From positions 1 through 46,182 of the forward strand of contig JADHNB010000003.1 in NCBI GenBank assembly GCA_016779705.1: a stretch of 46,182 nucleotides of DNA, written 5' to 3'. Of this stretch, positions 11,756 to 14,516 are shown one piece after another. Numbering within the stretch: the first letter of the stretch is position 1; each line of letters begins with the position of its first letter. The notes beneath the pieces are model-generated. The model saw only the letters and a program-made list of their open reading frames with translations, did not search any database and was not told the origin of the DNA. The DNA comes from Poseidonia sp. GTDB taxonomy: Archaea > Thermoplasmatota > Poseidoniia > Poseidoniales > Poseidoniaceae. Made by a program: the position numbers and the translations under genes.

Positions 11756-12025
11756 ATGGGTCGAAGCGTTCCTCCATGGCGCACACGCGTTGAAGTTGAA
11801 TTGAACCGTTGGCAGGCTTTCCGTCGTGCCCTCTCCACCTCCGACCAAGCCTCGTTTGAACATCTCCTTGACGACATTCGTCAGCGACGTGCAGCCGGCG
11901 GTATGCTCCCGTCGCTTGATGTTTGGCACCCCGCCGTGCTCAGCATGCTGGTGGGATTGATGTCGCGTCTCGGGGAACTGGAGCGGCGGCTTTGTGCACT
12001 TGAGGAAGGGCATTCGGATGATTGA
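11756..12025 (+). CDS. Small helical hypothetical protein (89 aa), translationally coupled to the downstream family-B polymerase
   Basis: The stop TGA (12023-12025) overlaps the polymerase ATG (12018) in the string ATGATTGA. The sequence looks protein-like (WQAFRRALSTSDQASFEHLLDDIRQRR...LGELERRL). No family was recognised. The start at ATG 11756 is an inference. Confidence 0.45.
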   Translation: MGRSVPPWRTRVEVELNRWQAFRRALSTSDQASFEHLLDDIRQRRAAGGMLPSLDVWHPAVLSMLVGLMSRLGELERRLCALEEGHSDD

Positions 12026-14516
12026 GGGTTGGCTTCTCGATGTTCATGCCAACGACGCGCACACCGGGATGGTGGTTTGGGTCGTTGATGATGCAGGTCG
12101 GGCCGCTCGCTGCGATGTCCCGTGGGCCCCTTCGCTTCATGTCCACGGTTCGTCCGTCGACCTTGAACGGTTGGAAGAATGGCTCCTGTTGCCTGAAATA
12201 GCGGCACGCTTCACCGTGGTTGCCTTGGAACGGCGACGTCTGCATCTTGACTTGGACGGTGCCGATGTGGCTTCGGTTCTCGAAGTACGTCTCGAACCCT
12301 TTCATCATCTCAAAGCGCTGGCCGAGCACATTGAAGCGCGAGGTGATTTCCACCGCTACACCTTGTATTCGGTCGACGCCCACCTCGTTCAGCGTTTTCT
12401 TAACGACCACGGCTGCTCGCCTTTCTCCAGGGTGAGATGGGACCCGAAGACCACGCCCATGATTCGTCCCTTGCGTACGATGGACGAAAACGTCCTGCCT
12501 CCGTTGTGCCTTGTTCGCCTCGCGGTTGAGTTTGCCCCCTCCGCCTTTCCCTCCGTGGCCGATGCGGTGGTGGCCATGCATCTTGAAACGGTTCAGGAAC
12601 CCGGAATCCCAGCCACCCCCCGTAGCGTTCAAAGCACAACCCTGCACCGAGACGATTATCCAACGCTTTCGGCGATGTTGGTCGCCTTTGAAGCGACGCT
12701 CAAGCGCTTGGACCCCGATCTCCTTCTCACCTACGGTGGCGACAAACGCCTGTTTCCATGGTTGGTTCATCAATCAGAAGCGTTGGGGCGTTCACTCGTG
12801 CTCGGACGTTCAGCCACGCCGCTCTCTCTGTCCACCAAGGCTCAAACGGTTCGCTCCTACGGTCATACGAGGCACAGGGACGGGGCGTTTTTCCTTGAGG
12901 GGCGGCTTCATTTGGACCTGCGCAACAGTTTCATCGTCAAGGAAGGGGGAGTTGCGGGGTTGTTTGAGTTGGCACAACAATCGTGCCAATCGGCCCAAGT
13001 CATTTCGCGTCTTTCGCCGGGTTCGGTCATCAGCGCCATTCAGATGCGGGTGGCGATGGACGATGACGTGTTGGTTCCGTGGAAGAAGAACCGTCCAGAA
13101 GACACGAAATCAGCTTTGGAACTTCTGCACGCCGACCGTGGTGGTCTGTACCTTGACAGCCGGCCCGGCGTTTATGCTTCCGTCATTGAATTGGATTTTG
13201 CCAGCCTCTTCCCCAGCATCATCGCCACGCGAAACATATCTCCCGAGACCTTGAATTGCGCTTGCTGTCAGCCGTCGGAGGGTCCGAACACGGCCGGGGT
13301 TGTACCGCTCCATCCGGATGAAGCCACCGCTGAGTTTCGCCAGCGATATCATCGTTCACGATTTGGCCACACGTTGTTCCCTCTCTCGCACGAGAAAGCG
13401 CTCAAAGTTCCCGGCCTCCAAAGCCACACTTGCGGTCGAAGGCACGGCTTTCTCGGCCGTGTGGTTGCGCCCCTCATCGAACGCCGTCGACAACTCAAAG
13501 CGCAGCGATGCGAAAAGGGTGATGCGTTTGACTTGCGGCAAAACGCCCTCAAATGGCACCTCGTGACTTGTTTTGGTTACACGGGTTACCGCAACGCCCG
13601 CTTTGGCCGTATTGAGGCCCACGAAGCGATTTGTGCGTGGTCCAGGGACCTCTTGTTGACCACCATCGAAGAGGCTCAACGCGACGGGTGGGAGGTGCTC
13701 CATGCAATCGTCGATTGTGTTTGGCTCGCCGATCGTTCCAATCGGACGGAAGAACAGCAGCGTGTGGATGCCGAACGTTTCGCACGTCGCATCACGGAGC
13801 AGGTTGGCATTCCTTTGGAATTTGAACAGCATTACGAGTTCATTGCGTTTCTTCCAAGTCGGGTTCACGGGGCAGGTTCGCTCACGAAGTATTGGGCGTA
13901 CGGTGGAGGTGACTACAAAGTCCGGGGCATTGAACTCCGGCAACATTCCACGCCCCCGTGGATTTGTTCCCTCCAAGAGCGCGCCCTCCAGTTGTTGGCG
14001 GCGGGCGAACGGACCAACGGCGTGCCGGATCGCCAGGCTCAGCGAGCGGTGTTTATCTTGTATCAAACCGAACTGCAACGATTGAACGACGGCCAACTTC
14101 CCCCCAAGGACTTGGTCATCTCCCGTCGAATCACCTCTTCTCTCGAGGATTATCGAGTCAAGAACCTCTCGTATGCGGCCTTGCTCCGTGCCCATCATCA
14201 AGGTCATCACGTGCCATCTGGGGGAAAAATTCGCTATGTGGTGGTGGACGCTTCGGCAACGGAACCGCTTGACAGGGTGGTTCTCGCTGAGGAAACAGCG
14301 TTCAAGGAAGCGACGGTGACAGGTTGTCCTCTCCACTACACGCGCCTCGCCGAACGGGCCATTTGGGCGATCCTTGCCCCCTTTGGGTGGACGGACAAGG
14401 ACCTTCGTTCAACGAGTCGACAACCCACGCTTCTCGATTTCGTCATCCCTCGTTCTGAAGGGCATGAGAGCGTGCTGAAGCAGGTACCGAACGCCCCTCG
14501 AATTCACGAGGCGTGA
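12018..14516 (+). CDS. polB: Family-B DNA polymerase with degenerate 3'-5' exonuclease motifs and variant polymerase motifs B and C (PolB2/Dpo2-like?)
   Basis: The N-terminus MIEGWLLDV resembles archaeal PolB MILDxDY. Motif A is intact ([11 protein letters not shown]). Motif B is [13 protein letters not shown] (canonical KxxxNSxYG). Motif C is AIVDCVW (canonical YxDTDS). A KxY-like LTKYWAYG is present. The Exo I position reads LAVEF (canonical FDIET) and the Exo II position reads [12 protein letters not shown] (canonical YNGDNFDxPYL). Confidence 0.9.
   Translation: [832 protein letters not shown]

Follow-up and report, generated by a model that had tools for sequence, protein, structure and literature searches.

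A probable PolB2 mutasome locus in a Poseidonia-like Marine Group II archaeon

A stretch of 46,182 nucleotides from Poseidonia sp. (GenBank assembly GCA_016779705.1, contig JADHNB010000003.1, positions 1 to 46,182 of the forward strand; hereafter the window) encodes a family-B DNA polymerase with degenerate exonuclease motifs and non-canonical polymerase motifs B and C. What kind of polymerase, if an active one at all, does this gene encode? Our analysis indicates, with a probability of roughly 85%, that it is PolB2, the catalytic member of the 'PolB2 mutasome' of archaea, here from a Marine Group II (MG-II) archaeon resembling Poseidonia. The protein is a typical representative of the PolB2 family as published and does not define a new one; PolB2 was long labelled 'inactivated' and is now known as a translesion extender. 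The first-pass annotation, made from the sequence alone, had described a proofreading-deficient, specialised or even inactive polymerase that is not a replicase. It had missed that this profile is the published definition of PolB2 and that two partner genes adjoin the polymerase gene. The three genes are the following:

12018-14516, plus strand: PolB2 open reading frame (ORF), from ATG 12018 to the stop at 14516, 832 amino acids
11756-12025, plus strand: PPB2 (arCOG07300), small helical partner of PolB2, 89 amino acids, with an N-terminal arm MGRSVPPWR carrying R3 and R9
14443-15225, minus strand: iRadA, a Rad51/RadA-like core without N-terminal domain, 260 amino acids, convergent with PolB2

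The start of the polymerase gene at ATG 12018 is supported by its orthologs, which share the N-terminus MIEGW.... The motifs were placed by HMMER alignments of the window protein and of a profile of 19 orthologs against Thermococcus PolB structures, with the residue numbering of the tool. Such a profile alignment had been proposed by the first-pass annotation as a check on its reading by eye; it supports each motif claim. The exonuclease region comprises three landmarks:

12519..12533, plus strand: Exo I remnant LAVEF, residues 168-172 (profile alignment to Tgo L135-KMLAFDIET)
12732..12764, plus strand: Exo II remnant, residues 239-249, beginning with Y239 (HMMER alignments)
12903..12971, plus strand: junction at which the Exo III-bearing helices are deleted, residues 296-318 (HMMER alignments)

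In Exo I, the Thermococcus sequence FDIET (D141, E143) corresponds to L168-AVEF, and the alignment puts A169 at the position of the catalytic D141, so that the Asp is indeed lost, as had been claimed. E171 is kept in the window copy, and columns 169 and 171 vary freely among the 19 orthologs. In Exo II (YNGDNFDFAYL in Thermococcus), the reported loss of both the Asn and the Asp is confirmed: N210 is replaced by G and the catalytic D215 by L245, in a column that is variable among orthologs (L, I, W, F, H, V, E). As regards Exo III, window residues 268-318 span residues 238-333 of the Thermococcus chain, a shortfall of about 45 residues that should take in the Exo III helix, so that this region is deleted and not merely mutated. 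No YxxxD is found before residue 628, and none anywhere in the exonuclease-like region. The absence of YxxxD from the place of Exo III had been correctly noticed, but its expected position had been set slightly off, as the quoted AQQSCQ... sits just downstream of the deletion. The protein has in sum an exonuclease domain without active site, with Exo I not conserved and Exo III missing, in agreement with the description of PolB2 by Kazlauskas et al. 2020. The features of a canonical proofreading PolB (intact Exo I DxE, Exo II NxxxFD, Exo III YxxxD and motif C DTD) were not found.

The polymerase domain carries the following motifs:

13065..13139, plus strand: invariant loop followed by D373-R374, the D(K/R) motif (ortholog alignment)
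13191..13223, plus strand: motif A, beginning with L392 and including the catalytic D393 (alignment, 91 representatives)
13551..13589, plus strand: motif B variant, K512-WHLVTCFGY (alignment to Thermococcus K-ILANS-YGY)
13701..13718, plus strand: motif C variant HAIVDC, the HxxxD form of PolB2 (alignment)

The change of YxDTD to HxxxD and an invariant D(K/R) are hallmarks of PolB2 (Feng et al. 2022; PMC8764526). Both are found here, with an HxxxD motif C that retains the second Asp only and a D(K/R) located before motif A, as expected for the B2/G2 group. Indeed, in motif C (H562-A-I564-V-D566), I564 aligns with D540 and D566 with D542, which agrees with the earlier reading of YxDTDS as AIVDCVW with a single Asp. 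The surviving Asp had further been guessed to be the metal-ligand second Asp, and this guess is borne out by the alignment of D566 with D542 and by Feng et al. 2022 (PMC8764526), who name the second Asp of motif C as metal-coordinating. D373-R374 is present in 19/19 orthologs, and the ADRGG in which it lies aligns with ADKGG (253-DK-254) of S. islandicus PolB2. Motif A had rightly been called intact: D393 aligns with D404 of Thermococcus LDFRSLYPSII and is present in all 91 PolB2 representatives. In motif B, the Lys (K512) is kept and the N-S pair is replaced by V516-T517, so that the reported loss of this pair also stands; the same KWxLV..FGY form of the motif occurs in S. islandicus Dpo2. 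K512, H562, D566 and D393 are invariant in the 19-ortholog profile, and D393, D566 and K512 remain so over orthologs of 47-96% identity.

A further position of the active site concerns F398 (13209-13211), which stands where Thermococcus has Y409; this residue is an invariant Phe in the Poseidoniales clade and a Tyr in 77/91 PolB2 representatives. Y409 of Thermococcus is the steric-gate Tyr, and F398 might affect sugar selectivity.

The reading that survives best besides PolB2 is that of a catalytically dead polymerase homolog with a structural or regulatory role only, which is the original 'inactivated PolB' reading. The exonuclease carboxylates, the first Asp of the DxD and the N-S of motif B are all lost, and inactivation was proposed on published grounds (Makarova et al. 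2014; Rogozin et al. 2008). The residues that remain speak otherwise, since neither the Asp of motif A, nor the second Asp of motif C, nor the Lys of motif B changes in orthologs down to 47% identity. Moreover, Sulfolobus Dpo2 carries these substitutions as well and equals the replicase Dpo1 in activity (PMC8764526), and primer-independent PolBs that lack the first Asp are active as well (Kazlauskas et al. 2020). A dead subunit is for these reasons improbable, and the 'even inactive' option of the first-pass annotation is the least likely one, because D393, D566 and K512 are invariant and the HxxxD-bearing Dpo2 is active. By analogy with the Sulfolobus enzymes, the function of the window PolB2 is most likely specialised translesion synthesis. 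Dpo2 is a robust polymerase without 3'-5' exonuclease, and its role in translesion synthesis is to extend mismatches and lesions (PMC8764526). Its first 399 residues, taken from the supplement of PMC11791011, share 31% identity with the window protein over the core (E value 2e-30), and ADKGG/ADRGG and motifs A, B and C are in register in this alignment. The rest of the earlier description, a proofreading-deficient and specialised polymerase that is not a replicase, holds good, all PolB2 signatures being present and the characterised Sulfolobus members being exonuclease-free extenders.

The comparison with other family-B polymerases leads to the same assignment. In the Pfam search, the DNA_pol_B match covers the polymerase domain only (residues 343-757, E value 1.4e-20) and no exonuclease-domain match was obtained. 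Among NCBIfam models, NF004418 and NF004416 score best, with those for PolB1, PolB3 and Pol II far behind; for Sulfolobus Dpo2, too, these are the top two. According to bit scores, the closest sequence relatives are PolB2 proteins and not PolB1, PolB3 or Pol II: the best 150 50%-identity cluster representatives score 275-1198 and most carry the PolB2 motifs, vs about 121 for Thermococcus PolB, 46 for Sulfolobus PolB1 and 31 for E. coli Pol II. A regular-expression search of these 150 representatives and the window protein found an H-first motif C in 132/151 sequences and D(K/R)GG in 126/151. A large protein collection contains 537 homologs, full-length down to 47% identity, among which those with names belong to Candidatus Poseidoniales (Marine Group II) and Thermoplasmatota. 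A relative of the window PolB2 is encoded in at least 581 species-representative genomes, of which that of Poseidonia sp. JJ.4 is the closest (96% identity). The members of the 50%-identity clusters carry hardly any taxonomy, and the single named one, Candidatus Muiribacterium, is a bacterium. One locus (NZEQ01000045.1), deposited under the label 'Verrucomicrobiales bacterium isolate ARS100', is a typical Poseidoniales PolB2-iRadA-DinB-tRNA synthetase locus with 69% identity, and its contig is probably a mis-binned archaeal contig.

These relationships bear on a second alternative, namely a main PolB (PolB3-type) that recently lost proofreading, or a decaying pseudogene-like copy. This alternative can draw on the structural comparison, as the best matches among solved structures are Thermococcus PolB. 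The full-length AlphaFold2 model of PolB2, built from the 19-sequence alignment of one order (mean predicted local distance difference test, pLDDT, 74), is confident in the N-terminal and exonuclease-like domains and poor in parts of the palm and fingers and in an insertion described below; with Foldseek, it matched archaeal PolB structures at an E value of about 1e-36 and a template modelling (TM) score of about 0.5. Nevertheless, a degraded main PolB is very unlikely: the bit scores favour PolB2 representatives over Thermococcus PolB, PolB1 and Pol II by the distances given above, the ORF is intact and highly conserved across the whole order, and the PolB2-specific partners PPB2 and iRadA are present. 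In addition, the non-canonical motifs are invariant across the family (e.g. PWKKNR-EDTK...ADRGG), which points to purifying selection and not to decay.

The presence of partner genes is a further line of evidence. Published work links PolB2 with two proteins, a small helical one and a RadA that is inactivated (Makarova et al. 2014; Timinskas et al. 2025, PMC11791011). The former, PPB2 (arCOG07300), is described as having an 'MGRT' arm at its N-terminus, with Arg as residues 3 and 9, and the latter has been named iRadA (PMC11791011). Both have counterparts in the window. Indeed, (i) a gene for a protein of about 90 amino acids with three helices and an N-terminal arm with Arg 3 and 9 is adjacent to PolB2, shares 49% identity with the published Poseidoniales PPB2 EHR76802 (E value 8e-29) and is without match in Pfam or NCBIfam. 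Its single-sequence AlphaFold2 model shows helices at 7-25, 28-47 and 59-85 and a free N-terminal arm. The 3' end of PPB2 overlaps the start of PolB2 by 8 nt and, at the level of sequence, PolB2 is translationally coupled to the upstream PPB2. A PPB2 ortholog occurs in 76/80 loci, and 75 of the 76 orthologs start with MGR[ST]. (ii) The adjacent iRadA gene encodes a RadA core without N-terminal domain and shares 55% identity (E value 7e-86) with the published group-3b iRadA MBN29950, deposited under 'Euryarchaeota archaeon'. It has weak RadA/RadB matches in Pfam and NCBIfam, restricted to the RadA/RadB ATPase core. Its ATPase site is degenerate in that the RadA 'DTE' is changed to 'DGA', the Ala being aligned with the Glu of DTE, and the P-loop Lys column is variable among 78 orthologs (K 51, R 13, Q 5, S 4, A 2).

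Two side observations concern these partners. The published PPB2 MBN29952 (supplement of PMC11791011) starts with MRVEAEL..., without the MGR(S/T) arm of 75/76 orthologs, and its start codon has probably been mis-called. The 3' ends of PolB2 (plus strand) and iRadA (minus strand) overlap by 74 nt (14443-14516) in convergent orientation, and both tails encode non-conserved C-termini.

The order PPB2(+)-PolB2(+)-iRadA(-) is kept in 76-77 of the 80 Poseidoniales loci, with iRadA on the minus strand after PolB2 in 77/80. Poseidoniales operons were listed as group '3b (PPB2-PolB2-iRadA)' by Timinskas, Timinskas & Venclovas 2025 (PMC11791011), whose Table S1 gives 2-Hacid_dh_C, IMS, Lactamase_B and tRNA-synt_1 as typical neighbours of this group. 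The Pfam families around the window PolB2 are the same four. Since both neighbours and gene order match group 3b, this type of locus is already catalogued. For example, EHR76802/EHR76801/EHR76800 of the MG-II genome CM001443 (PMC11791011) comprise the same three genes in the same order with the same neighbour families; the PolB2 of that MG-II locus is 52% identical to the window PolB2, and the two loci belong to different species without any difference in kind. The window consequently adds a member to PolB2 and not a concept, the Poseidoniales copies having been catalogued before. A polymerase of a mobile element or provirus, of casposon or protein-primed type, can practically be dismissed: archaeal mobile elements commonly carry family-B polymerases of unusual motif content, but the chromosomal synteny with housekeeping genes (2-hydroxyacid dehydrogenase, class-I tRNA synthetase) is kept across dozens of species, the neighbourhood showed no gene for an integrase, Cas1 or a terminal protein, and the GC content is even across the window.

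Homology and the literature suggest how such a complex would work. PolB2 and iRadA would assemble with a trimer of PPB2 (1:1:3); a published AF-Multimer model of this heteropentamer, for the MG-II ortholog, has an AlphaFold ranking score of 0.87 (PMC11791011). On the same grounds, PolB2 would synthesise DNA without proofreading and extend mismatched or lesion-opposed primer ends. These ends would be left by another polymerase, plausibly the product of the adjoining gene for a Y-family DinB. In published models, a PolB2 loop/beta-alpha motif has a binding role, iRadA being bound as in a Rad51 filament (Timinskas et al. 2025, PMC11791011). In the window protein, W355 to K364 and D373-R374 are invariant, and the loop 350-372 has low pLDDT in the AlphaFold2 monomer. 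This invariant loop may be the counterpart of the beta-alpha motif for which iRadA binding is reported and is the predicted contact region for iRadA and PPB2. A last element of the protein lies at its C-terminus:

14421..14444, plus strand: PIP-like (PCNA-interacting protein-like) C-terminal box QPTLLDFV, aligned with the C-terminal RQVGL... of Thermococcus PolB

Within Q802-PTL805-LDF808-V, L805 is present in 19/19 orthologs, F808 in 18/19 and Q802 in 12/19. The PCNA-binding box of Thermococcus PolB lies in the C-terminal RQVGL... region, and the QxxLxxF box is a candidate PCNA-binding motif. Two further steps are put forward from sequence alone: the complex could be recruited to PCNA via this C-terminal box of PolB2, and both transcription units could be controlled through a shared upstream TTTCACTT(T/C) element. 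A by-eye look for a PIP box on the C-terminus of iRadA gave no convincing match; the PIP-like box sits on PolB2.

The gene of the putative partner polymerase lies beyond iRadA:

15322-16455, plus strand: DinB, Y-family DNA polymerase IV, divergent to iRadA, with an approximate start (GTG 15322)

DinB matches Pfam IMS and IMS_C, as well as the NCBIfam Pol IV model above its cut-off, and its N-terminal catalytic motif HCDLDAFFAAVE is intact according to a comparison of ortholog N-termini. A dinB gene is adjacent in 54/80 Poseidoniales loci; in the other subclade, the three-gene unit lies among unrelated genes and without dinB, which weakens the link between dinB and PolB2. The adjacency fits a two-polymerase scheme with an inserter and an extender. 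The IMS family figures in Table S1 of PMC11791011, but the main-text passages of that article on Y-family polymerases do not treat DinB as a neighbour. As the locus shows, a group of archaea that ranks among the most abundant in the surface ocean keeps a complete damage-tolerance island composed of PPB2, PolB2, iRadA and, in many species, DinB. An analogy with imuA-imuB-dnaE2 was considered and dropped, because DinB has an intact HCDLDAFFAAVE and the published comparison of PolB2 with Pol V fits better. ImuB, unlike the window DinB, is not known to have an intact N-terminal catalytic motif.

The window PolB2 can be compared with several known systems. S. islandicus Dpo2 resembles it by HxxxD (IID vs IVD), D(K/R)GG, KWxLV..FGY, the absence of an exonuclease site, and PPB2 and iRadA partners. 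It differs in being much smaller, with a more decayed exonuclease domain, the Sulfolobus enzymes being the smallest known PolB2 (Feng et al. 2022; PMC8764526). Dpo2 also lacks an insertion of about 36-45 amino acids, has only two of four cysteines discussed below (DAC...HSIC), and has Tyr at the position of Thermococcus Y409, where the window PolB2 has Phe (F398). All three genes of Sulfolobus are listed in group 3a, whereas iRadA is convergent in the window. Eukaryotic DNA polymerase zeta (Rev3) also belongs to the B family, has an exonuclease domain that is inactivated, and extends mismatches and lesions when two polymerases share translesion synthesis, an analogy drawn in PMC8764526. It works with Y-family inserters, and a Y-family polymerase gene adjoins PolB2 in the window. 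Pol zeta is however not orthologous, has Rev7, Pol31 and Pol32 in place of PPB2 and iRadA, and carries its metal-binding motifs in the C-terminal domain. The bacterial Pol V mutasome (UmuD'2C-RecA) shares with PolB2 a multisubunit, error-prone organisation with a RecA/Rad51-family protein, a small oligomeric accessory protein and the sliding clamp; its catalytic subunit is a Y-family polymerase, and the likeness is one of architecture and not of descent. Finally, Thermococcus/Pyrococcus PolB (1TGO, 4K8Z) has the overall fold over the full length, motif A and the C-terminal PIP-like box in common with the window protein. Its Exo I, II and III, the DTD of motif C and the N-S of motif B are intact, in contrast to the window PolB2, and it lacks the insertion and two additional Cys of the latter.

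Several points weigh against the assignment to an active PolB2 mutasome. First, the three genes are not co-oriented in one operon, which would be the commonest arrangement: iRadA is convergent and, being on the opposite strand, does not form a single operon with the other two genes. Secondly, the window iRadA has a consensus Walker A, GPGRAGKS (residues 41-48), as well as a Walker B-like LLVVD, which qualifies the description of its ATPase site as degenerate, and this copy may have an ATP-binding role. Thirdly, the AlphaFold2 monomer has pLDDT below 50 at 357-379, 397-433, 445-477 and 519-538, in parts of the palm and fingers. Fourthly, activity and extender role are extrapolated from Sulfolobales enzymes at about 31% core identity. 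Lastly, the adjacency of dinB is confined to one subclade (54/80) and may be inherited synteny rather than functional coupling.

Between motifs A and B, the window protein contains a clade-specific insertion bordered by cysteines:

13257..13268, plus strand: first three Cys, C414-A-C416-C417 (91 PolB2 representatives)
13275..13409, plus strand: clade-specific insertion of about 36-45 amino acids, residues 420-464, between Cys3 and Cys4 (Cys spacing)
13425..13433, plus strand: H470-T-C472 with the fourth Cys (91 PolB2 representatives)

Motifs A and B stand 119 residues apart here vs about 83 in Thermococcus (70-89 in most other PolB2), which confirms an insertion of about 36 amino acids, in line with the estimate of about 35 made by eye. 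The spacing between Cys3 and Cys4 gives the same picture: 54 residues in the window protein, 45-54 in the closest clade and 10-19 in 75/91 PolB2 representatives. The pLDDT of the insertion is low. The Cys and His residues had been described as scattered within the insertion; instead, they flank it, with C414, C416 and C417 on its N-terminal side and H470 and C472 on its C-terminal side, and the four Cys are kept also in PolB2 proteins without insertion. Among the 91 PolB2 representatives, C414 is present in 89, C416 in 85, C417 in 78 and C472 in 90, and all four Cys in 77. In some of the exceptions a Cys is replaced by His, an exchange that is typical of metal ligands.

These cysteines (CxCC...C; C414, C416, C417, C472) might tentatively be regarded as an unremarked metal site of PolB2, binding zinc or an iron-sulfur cluster. 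Zinc, cysteine or Fe-S are not mentioned for PolB2 in Timinskas 2025 or in a 2026 survey of bacterial polymerases, and no publication linking PolB2/Dpo2 to metal clusters was found among the ranked results of a literature search. The site would lie at the junction of palm and fingers, at a sequence position that appears to be that of the essential [4Fe-4S] CysX of eukaryotic DNA polymerase epsilon. CysX was described as absent from other PolBs (Kazlauskas 2020). C417 aligns with Tgo C428, and C472 with both Tgo C442 and yeast Pol2 C763; the Pol2 sequence was checked against PDB entries. The first three Cys stand 21-24 residues past the motif A Asp, vs 25-37 in Pol2. In Pol epsilon, the P-domain is located between Cys3 and Cys4, where Poseidoniales PolB2 has its insertion of about 40 amino acids. 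If the metal site were true, the insertion would be a lineage-specific module on a metal-stabilised base and not a random loop. The conserved Cys motif could also reveal whether the catalytic cores of B-family enzymes held metal clusters before eukaryotes arose.

Upstream of the genes, conserved DNA elements were also observed. An element TTTCACTT(T/C), also given as TTTCACTTTC, is shared by the upstream regions of PPB2 and iRadA, each time in the orientation of the gene:

11692-11705, plus strand: CACTTTCACTTTCC, in which the hexamer ACTTTC occurs twice in tandem, 52-64 nt ahead of the start of PPB2
15271-15285, minus strand: GGCTTTCACTTCAAG (minus-strand sequence), the second copy, about 46-60 nt before the iRadA start, in the divergent intergenic region of iRadA and dinB
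15286-15300, plus strand: ATCAAGTTCAAACAC, conserved, about 25-35 nt ahead of GTG 15322, the likely start of dinB

Throughout the order, and also in the subclade that lacks dinB, both copies of the shared element are kept at -60 to -70, and GGGGT(C/G)TTC follows about 8 nt after each of them. In the Poseidoniales loci, TTCACTT is present in 59/76 of the 100-nt windows upstream of PPB2 and in 31/63 of those upstream of iRadA, for a background of 0.015 per 100 nt. TTTCACTTYM has only two exact matches in the 46,182-nt window, which are the two copies of the element; this count of 2 compares with 0.73 expected and is reached by 21/100 shuffles, so that alone it is not significant. The weight of the element comes from its position and its conservation across species and not from its count in the window. 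The PPB2 copy contains ANTTTC, which is the Orc1-2-bound DNA-damage element of Sulfolobales, where induction of Dpo2 depends on Orc1-2. The element upstream of PPB2 is a candidate promoter or damage-response element, and the shared element with its ANTTTC could help to tell whether Archaea beyond Sulfolobales have a DNA-damage regulon of the Orc1-2 type. As for ATCAAGTTCAAACAC, the form TTCAAACA is found exactly in 34/55 loci, and ATCAAGTTCAAACAC may serve as a TATA-like box from which a dinB mRNA with a short leader or none is made. A promoter and terminator scan gave nothing above chance, its consensus being that of bacterial sigma-70, which is uninformative for an archaeon.

The remainder of the window contains other genes, some of them related to nucleic acids:

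135-221: tRNA-Ser
1869-1943: tRNA-Thr
6690-8709 and 2247-3722, minus strand: genes of the RmuC family, for a NUDIX hydrolase and for an RtcB ligase, upstream of the polymerase locus, nucleic-acid-related

The two tRNAs are the only hits of the Rfam scan of the window. An alanyl-tRNA synthetase gene likewise occurs within the window and, further downstream, large proteins with TSP3, PKD and PNGase-F-like domains are encoded.

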